A DNA stretch of 64,000 nucleotides from a virus. Taxonomy: Duplodnaviria; Caudoviricetes. How positions within the stretch are numbered: position 1 is the stretch's first letter; each line of letters starts with the position of its first letter. The stretch is from IMG/VR virus record IMGVR_UViG_3300044981_000214; one strand, 5' to 3'. Position numbers and translations under genes: made by a program. The notes beneath the pieces are model-generated. The model was given only the letters and a program-made list of their open reading frames with translations. It searched no databases and had not been told where the DNA came from. Shown here piece after piece: positions 2,466 to 54,375 of the stretch.

Positions 2466-2479
2466 TCTGGATATGCGTC

Positions 2480-2700
2480 GCGCGGTATTTATACACACGC
2501 GACCTATTCGTCTTGAAAGTCCGCGAAGGCGCAATAGGATAAAATCTATTGTGCGTCGGCCTGCATATCATGAGTCGCCTCGGCGACGCGCTTATGCTTG
2601 ATCGGCTTTGCCCTGAAATTCTTTAGGGCTTCTCCTTCAACGACCTTAAATTTCAAGGCCTCCAGAACCCGCAAGCCGCGGGCTAAAATATTTAGGGCTG
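2480..2700 (-). ncRNA. Putative omegaRNA of TnpB-1
   Basis: Hairpin-rich region overlapping the tnpB 3' end (e.g. CAATAG..CTATTG); boundaries uncertain. Confidence 0.4.
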
Positions 2701-3769
2701 CGTTATGGTCGCGGTCTAATGTTAGGCCGCACTGAGGGCAATCGTGTACTCGGACACTCAAGTCCTTAGGTACCGGTTTGCCGCAGCCGTAACAGTCAAT
2801 CGATGTGCCGCTAGGGTTTACTGCCTGTACCCACTTACCAGCTTCTTCCGCTTTGTTAGTAGTACAAATGATGAAGGCACTCCAAGCAACATCATTGATT
2901 GCTTTACTCAAGCAGTGATTACGAACCATTCCTTTGATGTTCAACGCTTCAAAGGCGATGAGGTCGTACTTTGTTACTAACTCCTTTGCGAGGTGTCGGG
3001 CGTGATTGAGTTTCAAGTTCTTGATACGCTCGTAGGCCTTGGCAAGCTGGACCTTAGCTCTGAAACGGTTGTTGGAGTCCTTCTGCTTACGTGCTAGCTC
3101 TTGGTTGAGACGTTTCAACTTAGCTTCAGACTCACGATAGAACCGTGGGTTGGGGATGTGCTCACCGTTAGAGAGCGTCGCGAAGTGAGTCAAGCCGACA
3201 TCGATGCCAATCGCGGTTCCTGTGTTGTTCTTGTTCGGTGAAGGGCCAAGCTCAAGAACTAAACTGATAGCCCAATTCCCTGTACTCTTGTACTTTACGC
3301 TTACCTGCTTTATCTTCGCGTGCGCAGGTATCTTACGGTATAGATTGAATTTTACATAGCCGAGAGTTGGAATCTTGATCCGATTCTTAACTATTCTGGT
3401 CTTAGGGAACGTAAATGAGGCGTACCGGCGCGCACCTTTGTATCGTGGATAGCCTGGTACATCACCTTGCTTCACGCGTCTAAAGAAGGCAAGGAAAGCG
3501 CGATCGAGCCGAGTAATAGCTGACCTAAGAACGTCAACTGAGATTGCGCCCCATTCAAGGTCTTTCCTAAGTTCAGTCAGTTCTATCGTCTGATCAAATC
3601 GACTTATCGCCTTCTTCTGTGTCGTATACGCATGAGTACGCTGTTCCAAACAAGCGTTATAGAGCCAGCGGCAATGCTTGATCCAATCAAATAGTGTCTC
3701 TGCTTGTTTGGGCGTAGGCAATAGCGGATATGTGTAACTACGAAGCAAGCGGACGACATTTAAGCACAT
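2546..3769 (-). CDS. tnpB: TnpB RNA-guided endonuclease (IS200/IS605-type), no tnpA nearby
   Basis: N-terminal HTH; RuvC D (IGIDVG), E (IAFEAL) and D (DRDHNAA); CxxC-CxxC finger. Confidence 0.95.
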   Translation of the reverse strand: MCLNVVRLLRSYTYPLLPTPKQAETLFDWIKHCRWLYNACLEQRTHAYTTQKKAISRFDQTIELTELRKDLEWGAISVDVLRSAITRLDRAFLAFFRRVKQGDVPGYPRYKGARRYASFTFPKTRIVKNRIKIPTLGYVKFNLYRKIPAHAKIKQVSVKYKSTGNWAISLVLELGPSPNKNNTGTAIGIDVGLTHFATLSNGEHIPNPRFYRESEAKLKRLNQELARKQKDSNNRFRAKVQLAKAYERIKNLKLNHARHLAKELVTKYDLIAFEALNIKGMVRNHCLSKAINDVAWSAFIICTTNKAEEAGKWVQAVNPSGTSIDCYGCGKPVPKDLSVRVHDCPQCGLTLDRDHNAALNILARGLRVLEALKFKVVEGEALKNFRAKPIKHKRVAEATHDMQADAQ

Positions 3770-3790
3770 GAACCATTACATGACAAGTGG

Positions 3791-3819
3791 TTGTAAGACC
3801 TAATTGAATATTGTAAGCT
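3791..3819 (+). promoter_or_regulatory. sigma70-type promoter of the 3826 operon
   Basis: TTGTAA-N17-TAAGCT, with the ATG 6 nt downstream. Confidence 0.55.
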
Positions 3820-3825
3820 TATCTT

Positions 3826-3954
3826 ATGGCAATCAAACCGATGGTCCTAGGTCTAGTAGGCCGTCGGACAAATAAACGCATTTGTGTAAAGGTCGGTCGT
3901 CGTGTCTACTGCGGTAGACGTGTCAAACGTCAAGCAAGGCTTAAACTTAGGTAG
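3826..3954 (+). CDS. 42-aa basic Cys-paired peptide (not in ORF track)
   Basis: MAIKPMVLGLVGRRTNKRICVKVGRRVYCGRRVKRQARLKLR*. Confidence 0.7.
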   Translation: MAIKPMVLGLVGRRTNKRICVKVGRRVYCGRRVKRQARLKLR

Positions 3955-12912: not shown

Positions 12913-12963
12913 ATCAACCCAACGCCACTCTACTAGCGCCTATTCCAAAAATCAAGTCAAGAG

Positions 12964-13566: not shown

Positions 13567-14178
13567 ATGCAACCGCTTGGGGATGTACAACCGACCCAAC
13601 AAATTTTCGAGTTTTCTTGTGGCAGTGCGGCATTAAAGGCCGTTCTAAAGCATTGGGGTATGGATGTTGACGAACCGACACTAATTGATCTTATCGGTGT
13701 AGACCCAAAGACAGGTAGCACTGCGTACCAAGTCGAGCGTGCCGCAAAGAAGCTCGGGTATCAAGCCATAACTTTTGAGTTCGACAACGTGGAGGAACTT
13801 AAACCTTTCGTCGACAATCACGTGCCCGTCATCATGGCTATCCAGAGCTTCAAACGGCCAGATCAAGGGCACTTCGTCGTCGGAACGAAAGTCCAAGACA
13901 ACACAATCGATATTATGGACCCAAACGTCAAAGGCAACTGGCGGACGATCTCGAAAGCTGAAGCTACTCGACGCTGGAAGTTTCGTGACAACGTGGGCAT
14001 TGTGGTAACGCCTAAGTCAGGTTTGGGGGAATTGGATTGGGTACGGTCAAGAAATCGGCAAATGTACGATTATGGTCGTGGGGTTGGAATTGCCGAAGAT
14101 GCCACCTGTAATCCACTTCTTTGGGCCGTCGGAGGGATAGCTGCTACGTTAGCTGCGGTGTGGCTGATTACGCGCTAG
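13567..14178 (+). CDS. C39-like cysteine peptidase with C-terminal membrane anchor
   Basis: QQIFEFSCGSAAL (Gln/Cys), GHFVV (His), MDPN (Asp); TM + R at the end; start set 7 nt after TGGTAAACT. Confidence 0.85.
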   Translation: MQPLGDVQPTQQIFEFSCGSAALKAVLKHWGMDVDEPTLIDLIGVDPKTGSTAYQVERAAKKLGYQAITFEFDNVEELKPFVDNHVPVIMAIQSFKRPDQGHFVVGTKVQDNTIDIMDPNVKGNWRTISKAEATRRWKFRDNVGIVVTPKSGLGELDWVRSRNRQMYDYGRGVGIAEDATCNPLLWAVGGIAATLAAVWLITR

Positions 14179-14444
14179 CACTTTTCTTTGAAAACGGCGT
14201 CTCCGCCACCCCACGATGTTCCTATTAGGCCAAACAACAGTGAAAATAGAAACGAGTTGTTAGGACAGCCCGACGGTGAAGCTGAGGGCGATACTTTATC
14301 GAACATAATATCTGCTAAAACGCCTAAAGCTAACCCGACGCTACTTCCAATTGCTACTCCTTTAATGTATTGGCCTTGCGTAATAGGGCACGCCGTTTTA
14401 GTTGTATCTCCTAATTGGTGCACATTTCGCCTATTTCGTCTCAT
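14175..14444 (-). CDS. Small two-TM protein with basic LGD leader
   Basis: MRRNRRNVHQLGD; two hydrophobic Gly-rich segments. Confidence 0.7.
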   Translation of the reverse strand: MRRNRRNVHQLGDTTKTACPITQGQYIKGVAIGSSVGLALGVLADIMFDKVSPSASPSGCPNNSFLFSLLFGLIGTSWGGGDAVFKEKC

Positions 14445-14461
14445 CTTCTGATTATCACACG

Positions 14462-14620
14462 AAAAAAAAAAACACTAGCGCGAAGTAGTAAGACCTAATT
14501 ACGTGCCTATCCGGTTAACGCTCATTGAGCAACCCGGCTTCCCTCAACAGGAGGCTGATGACAGATCTTAGCTAGATCTACCAGCTGTCTTTTCGACAAC
14601 GCACTCAGCCCGAGATTAAG
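14462..14620 (-). ncRNA. Orphan TnpB omegaRNA with about 21-nt variable tail and T11 tract
   Basis: Scaffold near-identical to about 54230-54353; diverges after GTAAT(T/G)AGG; hairpins conserved. Confidence 0.6.
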
Positions 14621-14852
14621 TATGTTCTGTGCCGAGTTCACGTCTCGGTCGTGGCTAGCGCCACATTCAGAACATACCCATTCCCTTATTCCAAGACCTG
14701 CGATACCTTTCGGCCTCGACTCGGGGATAATTCCACAAGCCGAACAGGTTTGGGTCGTGAAACGCTCTGACACTTCTTCGAATATCCCTTGGCGCCTTCT
14801 GGCCTTGTAATCAAGGGCTTGTTTGGAAGCGTACCAGCCTGCATCATAGATT
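14494..14852 (-). pseudogene. tnpB: 3' remnant of TnpB-2-like gene
   Basis: IYDAGWY...CSAC..CSEC..HDRDVNSAQNI; nearly identical to about 53997-54353; the 5' part is absent. Confidence 0.9.
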
Positions 14853-15124
14853 GTTGGGTTCTCGCAGTACCGACAGACCTAACAAATGCTCTACAGGCAG
14901 TATTGAATATAGGCAATCATGACTTGGCGAAAGAGTTAGCGAATGATGCAGGCTGGTCTCTAACATTGGTTCATACCTTCCAATCCTGGGGACCGAATTA
15001 TTACCAGTTGAGCATCAGAAGTGAGACGCCCCCTTTATTTGAAAGACATATGTATTTAATCTACATAGACCGTGTATTAGAATACGTTCCCTGCCCCAAG
15101 GAACGTGTTCATACCTATGTGTAA
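14789..15124 (+). CDS. ALQA-module family protein, possibly 5'-truncated
   Basis: PTDLTNALQAVLNIGNHDLAKELANDAGW; no start codon between the tnpB remnant and the module. Confidence 0.55.
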   Translation: MAPSGLVIKGLFGSVPACIIDCWVLAVPTDLTNALQAVLNIGNHDLAKELANDAGWSLTLVHTFQSWGPNYYQLSIRSETPPLFERHMYLIYIDRVLEYVPCPKERVHTYV

Positions 15125-15389
15125 CGACGGCGAGACTAGCCACGATTTCCTTGAGGCTCTTCAGGCCTTACTAAGGGTAGGTACAGACGAGGCTAAAGGC
15201 ATCGCGAAACAGCTTTGTCTCGATGCAGGATGGATACTAACCACCTATTCCAGCTTTGATAACGAGCCCTTTTGGGAACTGCAAAATTTTACAAGATACC
15301 CTGGTAAAGTCTTATATAGATATGTCCTCACTGATCGGATATCCGATTTGAAGACTTGGTACCCTGACACACTTGATATACTGGAGTAA
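15105..15389 (+). CDS. ALQA-module family protein
   Basis: DFLEALQALLRVG...AKQLCLDAGW. Confidence 0.7.
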   Translation: MFIPMCNDGETSHDFLEALQALLRVGTDEAKGIAKQLCLDAGWILTTYSSFDNEPFWELQNFTRYPGKVLYRYVLTDRISDLKTWYPDTLDILE

Positions 15390-15395
15390 CAACCC

Positions 15396-16667
15396 ATGGC
15401 TGCAATCCTGCCCAATCTCGAAGTTCCCGAAGACATATCGATTCTAGAACGCGAATATTCAAAATGCGCCTCGTCGATGCATGGCGCAACGCTAGGCGAA
15501 AACAGTCCTAGCTGTCCATCGCCCGACACAGTCATCGCAGAGGCGCACGCAGGCCTACTCAACATGGTATTCGTTCGTGAGGCTGTAGAACAGAGTCTCA
15601 TAGACGTAACGTTCATTGCTCAGGCCGGAAATCTGGCTGGTAAAGATACTAAGGGCGTATACCTAGTACTCGACAAGCCGATCGGTAGGGGGCCGGCGTG
15701 GAACCCTACTACAAATCCTGACGTCCAACAGTATTCGTTGCTGAGCTGGACTAGCAAGATGGCTTGCCCCTCGTTCAGCTTGCCTGCAGGTGATATAACC
15801 ATTGGCGGTAGCTGTCCCGGGGCTGCAGCAGGACAGAGTGTCGTCCCCGAAGGACGGTTAGTTGCAGCCCAAAGACTAGTTGCCAAGATTATCAAGAAAG
15901 AAGTCAATTTGGCGCAGTGTATCTGTGAGCACTGCTATAGTATGGGAGGTCAGTACAGCACTGGCCAGGTCCAGTACGCACAGATCCTACGCTATCTATG
16001 GGCACGGCAAGCCATCAATGTTGTAGCACCAGCACCAGATGGCTCGCCGTCTACTGCGTTTATCGAGACGATGGTTTATGCAATCGACAACGCCAATTTC
16101 TACCTCCAAGGCAGCAAAGGCGAAGACGCTGAACTAGTTCCCGAGCAATCCGGCAAGAAATTTTTTCGTATTCACGATTCAGGCGATTTCTTTGAGGAAG
16201 AATATCTTAGCCAATGGAAACAAATCGCTAGGCGTCTACCGCATATTCACTTCTGGGCACCTTCGAGGATTTGGGCCACAAGTTGGGGCATTGACGCAGT
16301 CAATAAGATCAACTCGCCGATTGATAACTTAGTTATTAGACCGTCGAGCTATGAAATCAACGAGCATCCACCACGAGATTTGGGTCCGGGATGGAGTGCT
16401 GGATCAACAGTGATTGCAGCTGACCAATTTCTTGGAATGACATCAGAGCTTGAGAAATATGTCTACGAGCACGCGCAACGAGTAGCGGTTCGCCCGAATG
16501 GACCTGATCCAAGAGCAGATTGGAACTGCCAAGCCTACTCCACCGAAGACGCTAAGCACACTTGCAGGAAAGCCGTAGCGCCTCCTGGGAAAGGTGGCGT
16601 TGCTGGCAAAGGCTGCCGAGCTTGTTGGCTAAGTACCGATTTAGTAGTTAACTATACGTTACATTAA
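15396..16667 (+). CDS. GP88-like (radical-SAM-like) phage protein
   Basis: TSKMACPSFSLPA, SCPG, ICEHCY, FFRIHDSGDFF, FWAPSR and CRACW motifs. Confidence 0.75.
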   Translation: MAAILPNLEVPEDISILEREYSKCASSMHGATLGENSPSCPSPDTVIAEAHAGLLNMVFVREAVEQSLIDVTFIAQAGNLAGKDTKGVYLVLDKPIGRGPAWNPTTNPDVQQYSLLSWTSKMACPSFSLPAGDITIGGSCPGAAAGQSVVPEGRLVAAQRLVAKIIKKEVNLAQCICEHCYSMGGQYSTGQVQYAQILRYLWARQAINVVAPAPDGSPSTAFIETMVYAIDNANFYLQGSKGEDAELVPEQSGKKFFRIHDSGDFFEEEYLSQWKQIARRLPHIHFWAPSRIWATSWGIDAVNKINSPIDNLVIRPSSYEINEHPPRDLGPGWSAGSTVIAADQFLGMTSELEKYVYEHAQRVAVRPNGPDPRADWNCQAYSTEDAKHTCRKAVAPPGKGGVAGKGCRACWLSTDLVVNYTLH

Positions 16668-40385: not shown

Positions 40386-41264
40386 TCAGCCCTTTCTTCG
40401 TATACGCTTACGACGTCGTTGTGTGCCAAAGCCGGAATTCATACGACGTTTGGCTATGTAGTAAGCTGTATAGCCAATCAATGCCAAACCTGCTATTGTC
40501 AATATCCCGTAGATTATCTGTTGTCCCTTAGTCAACGACCCTGCGGTAGCTGCAACCCCACCTTGTTCGAGATCTGCGTCACCAGGACCTATGCTCGTAT
40601 CCGTGCTCGCACTTCCCGAAGCATCAATTGTTGCTTGTTGTACAACCGCGCCCGATCCCATCGTTGCATTGTTAATCAATGACAGATACAAATTTTGTGC
40701 AAACGGTACGGCGCCGGCTGCCTGGAAATGGACACCGTCAGCTGTACGATTATCGGTGCTGGATATAAGGCGGCTATCGATTACATGATCAGCCCCAAAT
40801 ACATTCTGCAGCGTGCTATAGACTACTTGAGCTTGGGCATTACGATTTGCATCAGCAAATATGGGCGGTCCGATTGCCCATGCCTCGGCGTTAGGGAAAG
40901 CTTGACGGATTTGAGTAAAGGCGTTGGCATCTGCAGTAGGATCGAGCCCAAGGTCATTGGTACCAAGAAATACGACTAACTGTGTAGGAGAAAAAACTTG
41001 GTCGGAACTAATCAAGTCTACACCAGTATGAAACTGATACCGTGCACCACCAGTCCAGAAATTTGGCGCAGACCTGCTAACGTTGGCATCGATACGAACG
41101 CCTTGTGCACCGTTTTCCCATAGCATGGACGCTAACAAGTCGCCGGGAGCGGAGCTAGCACGCGTTGAACCTTGATTTACGTCCCAGATTTCTGGATCCG
41201 AGTCAAGACCGTGATGGGAAAGTGAGTCTCCGAACAGCAGTATGCGTTCGCCTTGAACGTTCAC
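40386..41264 (-). CDS. SGNH/GDSL hydrolase with C-terminal TM and basic tail
   Basis: FGDSL, LGTND, DGVH; TM then SGFG-TQRRRKRIRRKG. Confidence 0.85.
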   Translation of the reverse strand: MNVQGERILLFGDSLSHHGLDSDPEIWDVNQGSTRASSAPGDLLASMLWENGAQGVRIDANVSRSAPNFWTGGARYQFHTGVDLISSDQVFSPTQLVVFLGTNDLGLDPTADANAFTQIRQAFPNAEAWAIGPPIFADANRNAQAQVVYSTLQNVFGADHVIDSRLISSTDNRTADGVHFQAAGAVPFAQNLYLSLINNATMGSGAVVQQATIDASGSASTDTSIGPGDADLEQGGVAATAGSLTKGQQIIYGILTIAGLALIGYTAYYIAKRRMNSGFGTQRRRKRIRRKG

Positions 41265-42631
41265 GGCTTAACCTCATGGCGCTTCATTTCTCGATAAACA
41301 CGCTTGGTTTCTACATCCTCGCGATCGACAGGCTTGTGCTTGTTAGCATATTTCTCAACACCGCTCTTAACTCTAGCTATCGTGTTGCCTGTGAAGATGC
41401 GCCTGAACCCAGTCCCATCGTCAAGCAATCCTTCAAATTTGCGTTGCGGGTTAAGGTCTGCATTAGGACGTACAATAACAGCAAAACCGTTAATCGTGTC
41501 CTCCCAGCTGTCTGGGTTTTCCTCGGTCCATTCGGAGAGCATCCGTCTACGTCGTGTAGGTTTCTTATGTCGCCCCAACGCAACCGCAGCACGTTTCCTA
41601 GTGTAATAATACGCACCGTACCCCAACAGCCCCAGTCCAACAATCGCGCCTGCGATCGTTGCATAATGCCAAAATACACCCCACGGGCTTCCAGAAGCGC
41701 GATCAGGGCCAGGATCCTGTGCATCAGAGCCCGGGTCAGCTCCACTTGAGTCACTTGGCGGTGGTATCAGCGCCATATCTGTAGAGTTATCCCCGCCGCT
41801 GTCCGAGCTACATACAGGCATGTCAGCGGGCCATACAGGGCGATTGGTAGCTATGCCATTGACATAGCCCGGATTCGCATAGGCTTGAAGTGCTCGTTGT
41901 ATTAACGCTTGGCCGTCAGTAGAAGCATAAGAAAAAGGGTATCGCTTTAATACTGCCAATCGATAATGATCTACACCTGGAAGCAAGCCTACCCAAAAAC
42001 AACCATTTGGGACTGGAGTAGCGCAGCCCTTCTGATCGCAACACATTGCGTAGTTGTTGATGACGTTCGGGATACTCGGGAAATACTTTTGATACTCCCA
42101 ACCGTCTTGGTCGTTGCCACCACCAGTGAAGTTGTTGCTCTGCCCGGAGAGCACAAAATTAGCAATGATCGCAGCGAGAAAAGACGGGTCCTGAGATGAA
42201 GAGGTCCATCTCCCAGTTGACCCTCCTTGAATTTCGCCGAATAGACCACTATGAGATGTCAAAACGAGCTGAGATACAGTTTGCCCTCGCTGGGCAGCCT
42301 GATTGACGGTTGTTTCGGCTAATGCAACACGTGTCTCGGCCGTCGAGGCTCCAACTTCACTTTGAATATTTCTTGCTAGAGCATAAACGTCCGCTGATAA
42401 AGCTTGACTACTAGGCCATTCAGGCAACCCTGAAGCTTGAAGCTGTTGCTCGGCTGCGGCACGTAAAGCTTCAGGGTTACACGGTATATCGCCTGCTGCA
42501 TTAAGTGCACAACCCGAACTGATGCTAGCTTCATAGTTCGGTTGACCTACAAGCGGCGCTAATTGGCTATGCCAAGTAGGGTAACAAGTAGGATCGGCGT
42601 CACCAAAATAGCCGAAATGACCCCATCGCAT
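41261..42631 (-). CDS. SleB-like cell wall hydrolase domain + TM + extra C-terminal domain
   Basis: YALARNIQSEVG...RVALAETTVNQA; MRWGHFGYFGD leader. Confidence 0.65.
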   Translation of the reverse strand: MRWGHFGYFGDADPTCYPTWHSQLAPLVGQPNYEASISSGCALNAAGDIPCNPEALRAAAEQQLQASGLPEWPSSQALSADVYALARNIQSEVGASTAETRVALAETTVNQAAQRGQTVSQLVLTSHSGLFGEIQGGSTGRWTSSSQDPSFLAAIIANFVLSGQSNNFTGGGNDQDGWEYQKYFPSIPNVINNYAMCCDQKGCATPVPNGCFWVGLLPGVDHYRLAVLKRYPFSYASTDGQALIQRALQAYANPGYVNGIATNRPVWPADMPVCSSDSGGDNSTDMALIPPPSDSSGADPGSDAQDPGPDRASGSPWGVFWHYATIAGAIVGLGLLGYGAYYYTRKRAAVALGRHKKPTRRRRMLSEWTEENPDSWEDTINGFAVIVRPNADLNPQRKFEGLLDDGTGFRRIFTGNTIARVKSGVEKYANKHKPVDREDVETKRVYREMKRHEVKP

Positions 42632-42651
42632 GAGAGCTAGTGTATCACAGC

Positions 42652-42680
42652 TTGACGGTCTATCGACTTAACTATATGAT
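42652..42680 (+). promoter_or_regulatory. sigma70 promoter
   Basis: TTGACG-N17-TATGAT; GGAG RBS before 42710. Confidence 0.65.
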
Positions 42681-42709
42681 GCTGCTCAATAACTAGGAGT
42701 TAATGAAAA

Positions 42710-43221
42710 ATGCCCCGCGCACAACAGCAACAACAAACTGACGATAACTATGAAATCGTTCCCAATAATGAACGAACACCGGCCATGCTACGAGAAATAG
42801 CCCAGCGAACCAAACTTCGTACATTGGCTGATATGTCTGAGACTGAGATACGTGCACTTGAAAAATTGTACGGTGCTAAGATCATAAGGCCATCGAAACG
42901 TAAGACTAAGCGAGTTAGACTCGTGAAATAATGTCTTCTACGGAAATCGCACCTATAGCTATCGCTTTCGCTGACCTGATCGACCGCATCAAAGCAGTCT
43001 GCCCGGAGGCAGCATTACTCGGTGAAGGGCCGTCGATCGGGATTGCGAACCCAAAAAGCATTTTGCCGCCCGGGACGCTAATTCTAGACGATTTGATGTT
43101 CAAAGCGGAATGCAGCGAAATATTTTCTCGATTCGATATTCCACATTACAAAGAAGCTGACGGGGTCCTGATTATGCGACCCAAGCCAATACCTCGCCCG
43201 CAAGAAGACAACGGGAACTGA
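42710..43221 (+). other. Two hypothetical genes (42710..42931, 42931..43221)
   Basis: TAATG-coupled ORFs. Confidence 0.6.
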
Positions 43222-43227
43222 AGGTGA

Positions 43228-43461
43228 CTATATGAGGTCGTCATATTTCCCAGTATCTTCTCGTGGCCCTACAATTCGAGAAGGAAATATCCAATATCGA
43301 TCAGGGTGTCTGTGTAACAAATAGTATCTCGGGTCATCCCGATCGTGACAGCGTAACGCATACCCTGCGTTTTCTGCAATTGTGCTAGCCAAATCATGTT
43401 GCCCAACATGTAGGCAAGCTTGCAAGGCGTGCAGCAGTTCAAGAATAGATTCGAAGGTCAT
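43228..43461 (-). CDS. ALQA-module family protein
   Basis: LELLHALQACLHVGQHDLASTIAENAGY. Confidence 0.72.
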   Translation of the reverse strand: MTFESILELLHALQACLHVGQHDLASTIAENAGYALRCHDRDDPRYYLLHRHPDRYWIFPSRIVGPREDTGKYDDLI

Positions 43462-43757
43462 TAGAATAACTTCTGACGTTCATAACCGTAGGACATTCTA
43501 TACACGCCATCAGCTGTTATACGATAGGATAACTTCCATAAATGTTCCTGCCGGTGGATCGTGTAATAATGTTGGCTAAGCCAATTCTCGTTGGTCCACT
43601 CACTAAACACCCATCCTGCATCCTCTGCAAGCGCGTGAGCCAATTTGGGCTGCCTAGCGTTGAAACAAGCTTGGAGCGCGTGCAGTAGCTCAAGTAGCTT
43701 GTTGTTCTCCTCAAGGATTGTAGATGTGGCCTGTTCTGTCATAGCTGACAATTTCAT
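43461..43757 (-). CDS. ALQA-module family protein
   Basis: LELLHALQACFNARQPKLAHALAEDAGW. Confidence 0.72.
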   Translation of the reverse strand: MKLSAMTEQATSTILEENNKLLELLHALQACFNARQPKLAHALAEDAGWVFSEWTNENWLSQHYYTIHRQEHLWKLSYRITADGVYRMSYGYERQKLF

Positions 43758-43962
43758 CCATGTAGACCACGTGACGTGGACGAGGGTTTGCCTTCCCTAC
43801 TTCCTTTATAGGCCGTAGTTCATAACACCGTTGCCCTTGATTATCCCACAACGCTATCAGCCACCATCCATAATCATGGACTATGCACCTTGCTAAGTTA
43901 TACGATTCTCCAGTACGGAGAAGCGCTTGTACCGCTTGGAGTAACTCGTTAGAGAGCGTCAT
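43711..43962 (-). CDS. ALQA-module family protein
   Basis: NELLQAVQALLRTGESYNLARCIVHDYGW. Confidence 0.72.
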   Translation of the reverse strand: MTLSNELLQAVQALLRTGESYNLARCIVHDYGWWLIALWDNQGQRCYELRPIKEVGKANPRPRHVVYMDEIVSYDRTGHIYNP

Positions 43963-44288
43963 GTAAGTGTAGTAGCTTCACCCGCTAACACCCAATTGTC
44001 CGCTAGGCTTCTCCGTGATAAAAATATAACCCGATTCTGATCTGGATTGACTAGATATCCTCTATTGTCAGAGGTCATGATCCAATTTCTTGGCCCGCGA
44101 ATACTCAACGGAGCCCAACGAGTGAATACATGATCGGTACTTGTACCTGATGCAGTTCCCCAGTCAGCGAACGTCAAACGCCAATTAAGCGCTACAGCAA
44201 ACACCATCGCTTCAGCGCGCTTGATATGAATTAACGCCTGTATAGCGTTTATCAGTTCGATGTCGTTATCAATAACAGAGAGACTCAT
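43959..44288 (-). CDS. ALQA-module family protein
   Basis: IELINAIQALIHIKRAEAMVFAVALNW. Confidence 0.68.
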   Translation of the reverse strand: MSLSVIDNDIELINAIQALIHIKRAEAMVFAVALNWRLTFADWGTASGTSTDHVFTRWAPLSIRGPRNWIMTSDNRGYLVNPDQNRVIFLSRRSLADNWVLAGEATTLT

Positions 44289-44737
44289 TTTAGTTCTCGC
44301 TCTGGATCGCCGATAGCACGTCGTAGGAGATTAGCTAAGCCGTTAGCCAACGGTGCGGTCCAGAATGTCGTCTTGCGTGCGTTCGTCAGTTTGTCTAGGA
44401 CCTTTATGATTTCACGAATCGACTCGGCCGTAGTAGGATAATGCGCGCCACAGGCGTCAGCTACTGCTGTTGTAGCCCTTCTGGCAATTTCTTTCTGTTG
44501 GTTCTGTTCTAGTTCTCTCAGATTCAACCACGGACGGTCATCCATACCACTGCCCCAACACTTGTCACAGACGTCGACCGACATAGCTTGCCCGCCTATT
44601 CCCCTGCGCCATCCAGAGGTATTCCCGTACATCTTAGTGCCTAAGCCTGCACACTGTTCGCACGCGTCATCTTCGTTCCGAATGCCTCGCTGTCGCAGTA
44701 GGTCTCGCCAGGCTTCGTCGTAATCGGCGCTACTCAT
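44285..44737 (-). CDS. DnaJ-type Zn-finger protein
   Basis: CEQCAGLG...CDKCWGSG. Confidence 0.65.
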   Translation of the reverse strand: MSSADYDEAWRDLLRQRGIRNEDDACEQCAGLGTKMYGNTSGWRRGIGGQAMSVDVCDKCWGSGMDDRPWLNLRELEQNQQKEIARRATTAVADACGAHYPTTAESIREIIKVLDKLTNARKTTFWTAPLANGLANLLRRAIGDPERELK

Positions 44738-45021
44738 TTGTAGTCCTCTTCTTTAGTTGAGATTACAAACTTTATGCGTTCGGAGCTTACTGAGAAGGTT
44801 TCAGGAATAACCGCGGATCCATTGGACATTTCCAGTTCCTGTTGTTTCTGTAATAATAAACAAAAGGACGATGCATCCATGAACGGGATCACACGCCACC
44901 CAGCAGCTCTGGCTATAGCGTCGGCTTGGTCGTAGTGTCGAATCTTCAGCAAAGCTTGAATAGCGTTAAGGAGTTCGTCATCCATGAAATGAAGAGGGAT
45001 CGAGTAAATCTGTAAAATCAT
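44734..45021 (-). CDS. ALQA-module family protein
   Basis: DELLNAIQALLKIRHYDQADAIARAAGW. Confidence 0.72.
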   Translation of the reverse strand: MILQIYSIPLHFMDDELLNAIQALLKIRHYDQADAIARAAGWRVIPFMDASSFCLLLQKQQELEMSNGSAVIPETFSVSSERIKFVISTKEEDYK

Positions 45022-45211
45022 CGGGGCTGATCATAATGATGTGTTCGCGGTTCCAACTATTACCGGCTTGTGCAATACGTAGGTACCATCCATCAGAATA
45101 TTTCCAAGCTTGAGCCTCCCAGCCGGCAAATACAGCCAAGTCTTTGGCTTGGCTTATCTCGCCAAGCTTTAACAAAGCTTGAATCGCGTGGATAAGCTCG
45201 ATCGGGAGCAA
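44978..45211 (-). CDS. ALQA-module family protein
   Basis: LPIELIHAIQALLKLGEISQAKDLAVFAGW. Confidence 0.72.
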   Translation of the reverse strand: MLPIELIHAIQALLKLGEISQAKDLAVFAGWEAQAWKYSDGWYLRIAQAGNSWNREHIIMISPDDFTDLLDPSSFHG

Positions 45212-48684: not shown

Positions 48685-48903
48685 TTAGAAACGCTTGATT
48701 TGCGAACTTTCACGCTGCCACCACTCCGCCTTCGTCGGCACTTCGCTAGGCTTGTGATCGCACGCACACCCGGGGCAACACGCCACCTGGGCGCCTGGCT
48801 TACGATCAGGAAGATTAGTCCAGAAAATTGTAGGTGTACGACATGAGAAACAACGCTCGTATGGCGGCTCAGGATCGTCTTGACGCTGGATGGGTACGCT
48901 CAT
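48685..48903 (-). CDS. Small Cys-rich protein, copy 1
   Basis: CFSC...CCPGCAC. Confidence 0.65.
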   Translation of the reverse strand: MSVPIQRQDDPEPPYERCFSCRTPTIFWTNLPDRKPGAQVACCPGCACDHKPSEVPTKAEWWQRESSQIKRF

Positions 48904-49321
48904 ATCAGCTCTACGTTTAACCTAGAAATTCTATTTCATCCAGCCAATTCATTGCCTTGAAGGCGCATCAGGCAAAAGCAGCTGTTGGTTGTTCGGGAAC
49001 AGCAACTCGGCGATCTTCCGAACATGGCGCGGATGAGGACGCCAAGGCTGACGCCGACGCTTGCATCGAAGCATTTAAGAAGACAGCGGATCCAAACACC
49101 ACTCCGCCTTCGTCGGCACTTCGCTAGGCTTGTGATCGCACGCACACCCGGGGCAACACGCCACCTGGGCGCCTGGCTTACGATCAGGAAGATTAGTCCA
49201 GAAAATTGTAGGTGTACGACATGAGAAACAACGCTCGTATGGCGGCTCAGGATCGTCTTGACGCTGGATGGGTACGCTCATATCAGCTCTACGTTTAACC
49301 TAGAAATTCTATTTCATCCAG
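48719..49321. repeat. 225-bp direct repeat (48719-48943, 49097-49321) around a 153-bp unique segment
   Basis: Identical by eye; includes the promoter motif and most of the gene. Confidence 0.92.
49075..49281 (-). CDS. Small Cys-rich protein, copy 2 (different C-terminus)
   Basis: First 61 aa identical to copy 1. Confidence 0.6.
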   Translation of the reverse strand: MSVPIQRQDDPEPPYERCFSCRTPTIFWTNLPDRKPGAQVACCPGCACDHKPSEVPTKAEWCLDPLSS

Positions 49322-53117: not shown

Positions 53118-53155
53118 TGCTAGTGACAGCTTCTCAGGTGCTAGTGACAGCTTCT
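53118..53155. repeat. 17-bp direct repeat upstream of tnpB-2
   Basis: TGCTAGTGACAGCTTCT x2 separated by CAGG. Confidence 0.85.
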
Positions 53156-53200
53156 GGAAGAAATCGTGCTTATCCAGTTGACACCCAATCCAGCTAATCC

Positions 53201-54322
53201 ATGATCCTGACCTACAAATATCGGCTCAAAGGTAAGCGTACAGTTCGTCAACAGCGACAGTTTGCTTGGGCTGTAAACCAAGTGTGGAATTTCTGCGTTG
53301 CCGTGCAGCGCAAGATCCAGCGGAATTGGAAAGAAGGGTTGTTATCAAAATGGCCGTCCTTCTACGATTTGAAGGATCTGACCGCAGGATCCTCCAAAGA
53401 ATTGAGCCTTCATGCACAAACGATTCAGGATGTTTGTGCCCAATTTGTGAAGTCACGTGATCAACACAAGAGATGCCCAAAGTTTCGTAAGTCGAACGGA
53501 TCAAAACGTTCTCTTGGGTGGGTTCCATTTGAGGGACAGTCCCGGCAGATCACCTCTAGCTCGGTAACATATCTCGGCAACGAATATCGTTTCTTTGGTG
53601 CTAAGCGGCGTCCTCTTCCTGACACTGCTAAAGGCGGTTGTTTTGTAGAAGATGCGCGGGGACGGTGGTGGGTTTGCTTCCATGTCGAAGTTGATCAGTT
53701 GCAGCAAGCACCTGCTAAGGCAGTTGGGATCGATCTTGGACTGAAGACGCTAGCAACGTTATCAACAAATAAGAAGATCGAGGCGCCAAAGTTCTATCGA
53801 AAGCTTGAAAAGAAACTTGCGACGGCCCAACGGGCTAATAATCACGATCTAGCAAAAGCAGTAAATGCCAAAATCGCAAACCGTCGTCGTGATCACACGC
53901 ATAAATGGACGACGTGGTTAGCTAACAACTATAGCTTAATTTGTGTAGGCGATGTTTCAAGTTCTAAACTGGCCAAGACGTCGATGGCAAAGTCCATCAA
54001 CGATGCAGGCTGGTACGCTTCCAAGAAAGCCCTTGATTATAAAGCCAGAAGGCGCCAAGGGATATTCGAAGAAGTGTCAGAGCGTTTCACGACCCAAACC
54101 TGTTCGGCTTGTGGAATGACCCCCGAGTCGAGTCCGAAAGGTATCGCAGGGCTTGGAATAAGGGAATGGGTATGTTCTGAATGTGGCACAAGCCATGACC
54201 GAGACGTGAACTCGGCACAGAACATACTTAATCTCGGGCTGAGTGCGCTGTCGAAAAGCCAGCTGAGAATCCTAGCGGGTGCTCATCAGCCTCCTGTGGA
54301 GGAAAGCCGGGTTGCTCAATGA
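53201..54322 (+). CDS. tnpB: TnpB with rearranged RuvC-II, no tnpA nearby
   Basis: VGIDLG, VGDVS (canonical E absent), VSERFTT (alternative E), DRDVNSA, Zn finger. Confidence 0.95.
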   Translation: MILTYKYRLKGKRTVRQQRQFAWAVNQVWNFCVAVQRKIQRNWKEGLLSKWPSFYDLKDLTAGSSKELSLHAQTIQDVCAQFVKSRDQHKRCPKFRKSNGSKRSLGWVPFEGQSRQITSSSVTYLGNEYRFFGAKRRPLPDTAKGGCFVEDARGRWWVCFHVEVDQLQQAPAKAVGIDLGLKTLATLSTNKKIEAPKFYRKLEKKLATAQRANNHDLAKAVNAKIANRRRDHTHKWTTWLANNYSLICVGDVSSSKLAKTSMAKSINDAGWYASKKALDYKARRRQGIFEEVSERFTTQTCSACGMTPESSPKGIAGLGIREWVCSECGTSHDRDVNSAQNILNLGLSALSKSQLRILAGAHQPPVEESRVAQ

Positions 54323-54375
54323 TGAGCGTTAACCGGATAGGCACGTAATGAGGCAGACCGCAGTATGCGCACTCT
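54230..54375 (+). ncRNA. omegaRNA of TnpB-2
   Basis: Conserved past the stop codon with the 14.5-kb copy up to GTAATGAGG (54353); hairpins. Confidence 0.6.

Follow-up and report, generated by a model that had tools for sequence, protein, structure and literature searches.

Can the leftover end of a broken TnpB element serve as an RNA guide against another tnpB gene of the same virus? The question is raised by positions 14462–14852 of the 64,000-nt stretch of DNA analysed here (hereafter the window), which comes from the Caudoviricetes virus record IMGVR_UViG_3300044981_000214 and whose longest open reading frame has no more than 456 aa. At this place an omegaRNA scaffold is found with no effector gene beside it, and the DNA just past the scaffold resembles the region in front of tnpB-1, a gene whose protein is also recorded on a 228,894-nt contig, the window being part of a large virus genome. 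The initial annotation proposed that the remnant is a trans-acting guide, loaded on the TnpB-2 protein of an intact element in the same window and repressing its rival.

The remnant and its element family

The minus strand of 14494–14851 aligns to positions 53996–54353 of the intact element IS-2 with 93–97% identity, and it is thus correct, as had been noticed initially, that only the 3′ end of a TnpB-2 copy is left. By this homology and a Pfam match, the copy, named IS-2′, was placed at 14502–14852 (−) as a 5′-truncated second TnpB-2 element of which the final ~350 nt, the 3′ third, persist: 110 codons from the end of tnpB-2′, whose stop codon is at 14522–14524, an entire omegaRNA scaffold, and the right terminal inverted repeat ending ...GGATAGGCACG at 14502. 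The 110 codons still form an open reading frame and represent the TnpB C-terminus (Pfam Cas12f1-like_TNB, E = 1e-14); because the frame is still open, the truncation is likely to be recent. Homology to IS-2 just stops near 14852 and no left repeat was found near the remnant in the window, and the remnant does not have the pair of terminal inverted repeats and the 8-bp target-site duplication of a mobile MITE-like element. Two independent Logan contigs (run SRR19747158) enter the remnant from either side near 14852, and one of the two crosses the truncation junction, so that the truncation is not an artefact of the window assembly alone. On the plus strand, opposite the tnpB-2′ remnant, lies the TTG with which an open reading frame of a paralogous family (14789–15124) now begins; the rearrangement described below has probably deprived this frame of its original start. 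We found no near-identical phage records, an Rfam search gave no match, and exact look-ups of the proteins encoded next to the remnant showed them to be unrecorded or recorded only in the same Logan contig.

The intact IS-2 spans 53165–54345 (+), with its left terminal inverted repeat starting at 53165 and its right one ending at 54345, and encloses tnpB-2 (53201–54322, +; 373 aa). Both repeats are present in the window without a matching target-site duplication, and the element's own guide begins TAATGAGGCAGACC. Immediately left of the left repeat, a tandem duplication of GCTAGTGACAGCTTCT was seen at 53119–53155. We gathered TnpB-2 relatives from viral contigs and metagenomes, and loci with the right-end motif from bacterial genomes and viral contigs. 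Across 22 independent copies the element closes with a conserved ...AACCGGATA[G/A]GCACG and the flanks diverge from the next base; two copies, that of the metagenome contig L026 (see below) among them, have GCACA instead of GCACG. The scaffold had been taken initially to stop at AGG, but this family-wide end lies 8 nt earlier, at GCACG (14502), and the guide of the remnant would start exactly at the conserved element end.

The left end of the IS-2 family is the inverted complement of the right end, which gives terminal inverted repeats of ~26 bp, and perfect 8-bp target-site duplications bound 29 elements of the family. Bacterial 1.1-kb elements with IS-2-type ends code for IS1595-type DDE transposases (Pfam DDE_Tnp_IS1595, E = 3e-35 and 4e-38). 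Thus, the shared inverted repeats, the duplications and the IS1595-type DDE genes indicate that the tnpB-2 family is a passenger in IS1595-type ends and not an IS200/IS605 element, an identity ruled out for IS-2 by the symmetric inverted repeats and 8-bp duplications. It appears that tnpB takes the place of the transposase gene in this family and is mobilised in trans, and at the family level the features of a non-autonomous IS1595-type element are present. Loci with IS1595-type ends include 53165–54345 of the window, L143:3378-4489 and L147:3946-5056.

The last ~120 nt of the element form three helices with compensatory changes (20 sequences; ten both-side changes at one pair), and the remnant retains all three covarying helices. 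It combines the homology to the tnpB 3′ end, the right end and the conserved structure that make up an omegaRNA module. One scaffold hairpin reads GCTC-AAT-GAGC in the remnant and GCTCA-ATGA-TGAGC in the TnpB-2 element, just as the initial annotation described; the variable hairpin of the remnant is thus unlike that of IS-2, yet by eye both versions could pair, which we count against regarding the remnant as a mere relic. As for the effector, 13 relatives without exception share D178, E294 (relocated) and D335 of TnpB-2 as well as its four zinc-finger Cys, and its RuvC-II is rearranged, a Gly replacing the Glu with an alternative Glu present. Judged from these residues, TnpB-2 is catalytically intact, of nuclease type and not a TldR-like dead repressor, and it would be a compatible effector encoded by the same genome; its nuclease type is at odds with the initial suggestion that it represses by binding without cutting.

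Scaffolds without a complete tnpB gene also occur among the relatives. Viral contigs (L239, L300, L306 and L318, e.g. IMGVR_UViG_3300050119_000104) contain elements of 235–256 bp, several per contig, in which the scaffold stands between a left and a right repeat; they are bordered by perfect 8-bp duplications and differ in their flanks. These MITE-like elements look like mobile standalone guide modules. In a further viral contig (L004:5116-5235), an intact element is followed after 1.1 kb by an orphan omegaRNA scaffold with the right end; homology of this orphan to tnpB is limited to the final 60 codons, and compensatory changes preserve its helices.

The would-be guide and the tnpB-1 site

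The would-be guide, taken as the first 20 nt past the right end (14482–14501, −), starts TAATTAGGTCTTAC, and this flank is shared with L026. With its start corrected to TAATTAGG, the would-be guide reads TAATTAGGTCTTACTAC downward from 14501, and the tnpB-1 site reads CAATTAGGTCTTACAAC on the minus strand from 3806 to 3790; position 1 is an rU:dG wobble, positions 2–14 match, 15 is a mismatch and 16–17 match again. The identity of 15/16 between 14485–14500 and 3790–3805, on which the initial annotation was built, is borne out, and the window offers no second match even with 3 mismatches allowed; the exact 13-mer gave a blastn E of 0.05 (71-nt query against the window). The site was also correctly located 21–36 nt upstream of the tnpB-1 ATG at 3769. 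This gene (2546–3769, −; 407 aa) codes for a protein 30% identical to TnpB-2 and is the only other tnpB in the window. The proposed reading of the match as a TAM plus 8/9 seed bases was in the wrong register, the element end being at 14502. Farther on, the described tail is indeed followed by a T11 run (14462–14472, −), 29 nt past the right end, but no stable stem stands before it (−0.7 kcal/mol, no better than shuffles), and we rejected the run as an intrinsic terminator.

The flanks of the family point to a TAM. All 13 oriented relatives that carry an omegaRNA and a target-site duplication have T two bases ahead of the left duplication (position −2), and 8 of them have A at −3; DDE-only elements with IS-2-type ends have A or T at −2. 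From these flanks we infer (A)TN as a candidate TAM of the IS-2 family. The triplet preceding the tnpB-1 site is ATT (3809–3807, −), whereas the remnant's own locus has ACG and copy B of the motif (see below) has CAC. A compatible candidate, fitting T at −2, therefore precedes the site, although not in the register first proposed. On the sequence evidence, with this flank-derived ATT upstream and a match at positions 2–14, the guide match would be better placed for RNA-guided recognition than the initial annotation assumed, even though no promoter was detected at the site.

A live trans-guide is mechanistically plausible because standalone omegaRNAs work in trans, MITEs carrying the scaffold exist in the family, and an orphan scaffold is found in L004. 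The remnant RNA, loaded on TnpB-2, would pair with 3806–3790 (TAM ATT, seed 1–14), between the divergent start codons at 3769 and 3826, and would block the divergent promoters of tnpB-1 and a small gene, or else nick or cut the tnpB-1 left junction. The intact and covarying scaffold, the TnpB-2 encoded by the same genome, the contiguous pairing at positions 2–14 with the wobble at 1, and the context fitting the candidate TAM all favour such an action; standalone omegaRNAs are cited as acting in trans (PMC10691335, citing Altae-Tran 2021), and the TldR repressors are TnpB-type proteins able to regulate promoters. On the other hand, a catalytic TnpB-2 provided with a TAM and a 14-nt seed would risk self-cleavage, not repression, of its own genome, and a third copy of the motif occurs without the TAM.

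This third copy deserves attention. Copy A (AATTAGG-TCT-TACTAC; 14485–14500, −) lies in the would-be guide. Copy B (AATTAGG-AGA-TACAAC; 14401–14416, −), 84 nt from copy A, is within coding sequence: in the open reading frame 14175–14444 (−) it specifies the residues ...QLGDTT, part of a basic leader. Copy C (CAATTAGG-TCT-TACAAC; 3790–3806, −), 21–37 nt upstream of the tnpB-1 ATG, is the putative target. The pattern GTWGTA-N3-CCTAATT has 3 matches in the window vs 0.12 expected, and with 2 mismatches allowed 8 vs 1.8, four of them in 14000–14500. At the two positions where copy C differs from copy A, it agrees with copy B, and no homology was found among the flanks of the three copies. This would point to a family of short repeats more than to a guide dedicated to one target.

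Several other origins of the motif were considered and rejected. The remnant flank is not a decayed tnpB-1-type element, as homology ends with the 13-mer; colinear paralogy between the remnant flank and the DNA after tnpB-1 is weak (p ~0.01–0.04 with permissive gaps); a phage-RNAP promoter (SP6/K11-like by eye) is disfavoured by the presence of three copies only, their uneven spacing to start codons and the lack of such a polymerase in the window; and the motif does not fit the viral GAAATAG-N15-ACGTA promoter.

Pure coincidence, i.e. 15/16 identity arising with no shared cause, has to be weighed at this point. For one 16-mer at up to 3 mismatches, 0.38 matches per window are expected, the E value of the exact 13-mer is only 0.05, and the first readers scanned many possible coincidences. 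However, the match directly adjoins one TnpB element and is 21 nt away from the sole other tnpB gene, a related copy stands 84 nt off (~3e-4 estimated for a 14/17 match within 150 nt), and the pattern exceeds expectation at both stringencies. We consider chance a very unlikely source of the resemblance.

Transcription context and history of the two loci

A search of both strands of 14100–15450 gave no sigma-70-like promoter. The virus has a recurrent promoter motif, GAAATAG-N15-ACGTA followed by an ATG, of which 15 copies are present in the window and none faces the remnant. A broader form, G[AG]AATA-N13-17-RCGTW with an ATG 8–14 nt on, occurs e.g. at 12946(−), 26287(−), 27086(−), 48937(−) and 49315(−), and the recurrent motif probably represents a promoter class that belongs to the virus itself and serves leaderless genes. 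One such motif lies in each copy of a perfect 225-nt direct repeat (48719–48943 and 49097–49321, at 378-nt spacing). The genes past 14852 face the opposite way for 1.8 kb, and no read-through source was found for the remnant. At the tnpB-1 site, which was said initially to cover the −35 box of the 3826 operon, neither a sigma-70-like promoter nor the viral motif is predicted, so that this part of the proposal loses its footing. A guide acting on tnpB-1 would thus have no detected promoter of its own and none at its target.

The metagenome contig L026, from a sister virus, carries an intact 373-aa tnpB-2′; the flank to its right is that of the remnant (95% identical to 14851->12473 of the window), and the one to its left equals window 40678–43228 at 100%. 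Relative to L026, 14853–43228 of the window (~28 kb) is apparently inverted and ~1 kb is gone, with breakpoints inside tnpB-2′ and at 43228; what is missing is the 5′ two thirds of tnpB-2′ and the DNA upstream of this gene. If the inversion were reversed, two paralogous genes (14789–15389) and six (43228–45211) would come together in one array. The left terminal inverted repeat of IS-2′ was not recognisable in L026, implying that IS-2′ was already immobile. In addition, the junction of scaffold and guide is longer by 8 nt in L026, the additional bases lying precisely between GGCAC and GTAATTAGG; the guide register is therefore not conserved and the L026 guide would not seed on the tnpB-1 site. 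L026:3650-3830 is 100% identical to 54047–54226 of IS-2 over 180 nt, whereas the elements are 65–85% identical elsewhere. As judged from this alignment, the identity indicates a recent gene conversion between IS-2′ and IS-2, which could account for the TAAT[G/T]AGG at the start of both right flanks.

Another explanation is an ordinary OMEGA activity in trans: TnpB-2 with the remnant guide would cut related viruses that are without IS-2′ (TAM plus flank) and bias inheritance of the locus in co-infection, the likeness to tnpB-1 being incidental. The same scaffold and effector would serve this purpose, mobile standalone omegaRNA MITEs with target-site duplications exist in the IS-2 family, and TnpB has a known homing role (PMC10691335). 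However, it too requires transcription of a remnant for which no promoter was found. No IS-2′-free allele of the locus was recovered (the search for an empty site yielded, via the neighbour gp88, related viral contigs sharing gp88 only), and the left flank needed for homologous repair is rearranged. Homing by the remnant is thus unlikely.

The target has its own history. L109, a Logan contig of a sister strain from another run, is without tnpB-1 and has 67 nt in place of window 2467–3853; its identity to the window is 99.4% at one flank of tnpB-1 and 89% at the opposite one. At the corresponding place it shows a hairpin beginning AAATTAGG-AGGACGCC. Two hairpins, one beginning AAATTAGGAGGACGC, lie in L109:2565-2631 between small basic-protein genes. 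From this comparison, the AATTAGG half of the tnpB-1 site seems to predate tnpB-1, and the TCTTACAAC half seems to have arrived with the tnpB-1-bearing segment. Because tnpB-1 and the right half of the site are both missing in L109, the target is considered recent. Among 5.8 billion proteins, no TnpB-1 relative of >57% identity was found but the identical protein; its relatives at 44–57% identity have no conserved ends, no ends could be placed for the tnpB-1 element, and inverted repeats for it were not significant. Of the boundaries placed after TTAC and after TCAA, the right one, inside tnpB-1, disagrees with L109, whose homology picks up again at 2466, and the left one may hold.

The proposed guide on tnpB-1 keeps its scaffold, effector, seed match and candidate TAM, but it is weakened by the register, the promoter search, the recent arrival of tnpB-1, the third copy, the nuclease type of TnpB-2 and the missing support for a −35 box. 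We consider its action at the divergent promoters or the tnpB-1 left junction quite unlikely; that an orphan guide on a nuclease-competent TnpB-2 recognises and silences or nicks the unrelated tnpB-1 element (TAM ATT, 14-nt seed, mismatch at 15) is very doubtful. A selected circuit is disfavoured because the register is not conserved, tnpB-1 is recent, a third motif copy exists and no promoter was found. The resemblance between guide and tnpB-1 site is real, yet most likely not the mark of a circuit selected to regulate tnpB-1.

We lean, with modest confidence, towards an omegaRNA module that was stranded recently and whose flank has in common with the tnpB-1 locus either a short dispersed repeat or a junction history. 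IS-2′ would have been a second and already immobile copy, without left repeat, of a TnpB element in IS1595-type inverted repeats. A rearrangement in the window lineage, probably the inversion of ~14853–43228 with loss of ~1 kb seen relative to L026, would have cost tnpB-2′ its promoter and about two thirds of its length, together with the left portion of the element; the codons for the C-terminus, the whole scaffold, the right end and the former flank would have stayed behind. The would-be guide would then be merely the ancestral right flank of IS-2′, and its resemblance to the tnpB-1 site would come from the dispersed repeat (copies A, B and C) or from a junction history shared by both elements. 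We infer this order of events, and likewise that the module is neither expressed nor functional at present. Against a relic, the match begins at guide position 1–2 and covers the seed (13 contiguous nt plus the wobble), the site is in the promoter region of the sole other tnpB in the window and is preceded by ATT, which fits T at −2, and the mobile standalone omegaRNA MITEs imply that orphan modules can be maintained.

Relation to known TnpB systems

Even as a relic, the remnant and its relatives fix the element end, the scaffold and the candidate TAM of a virus-borne TnpB family in IS1595-type ends, and illustrate how guide modules may be stranded by rearrangement and gene conversion. If the remnant RNA is made and loaded, a natural and active TnpB nuclease would be re-aimed by an orphan guide at the promoter of another transposon, which would place two mobile elements of one virus in an RNA-guided conflict or cross-regulation and provide a possible intermediate on the way from selfish homing to TldR-type regulators.

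Elements of the IS200/IS605 group (ISDra2, IS608) have asymmetric hairpin ends, neither inverted repeats nor a target-site duplication, and a TAM that is the target of the transposase. IS-2 resembles their tnpB elements in that the guide comes from DNA past the right end and the scaffold overlaps the tnpB 3′ end, but unlike them it belongs to a family with symmetric inverted repeats and 8-bp duplications. It resembles the DDE-associated TnpBs with inverted repeats and the solo TnpBs mobilised in trans (PMC10691335), considering its ~26-bp inverted ends, its rearranged RuvC-II, the 8-bp duplications of its relatives and the IS1595-type DDE genes in the same ends. The main text of PMC10691335, however, names IS630 and not IS1595 for the branch DDE-6, and a pairing of IS1595 with TnpB in that sense was not found in the literature searched.

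Standalone omegaRNAs of OMEGA systems are cited in PMC10691335 (for Altae-Tran et al. 2021) as acting in trans with a compatible effector. Like them, the remnant consists of scaffold and right end with no adjacent effector and has a compatible TnpB elsewhere in the genome; unlike the mobilised ones, which have both ends and duplications, it is a truncation product with neither left end nor duplication. TldR proteins are TnpB-like, nuclease-dead repressors that have lost RuvC catalysis and have their guide RNA beside the gene (bioRxiv 10.1101/2023.11.30.569447; PMC13418256). The likeness to them is confined to the proposed logic, in which a protein of the TnpB family would be led by a short natural guide to a promoter site next to a TAM. 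TnpB-2 and its relatives, in contrast, conserve the D/E/D residues whose loss defines TldR, and the guide here would be the accidental flank of a broken copy.
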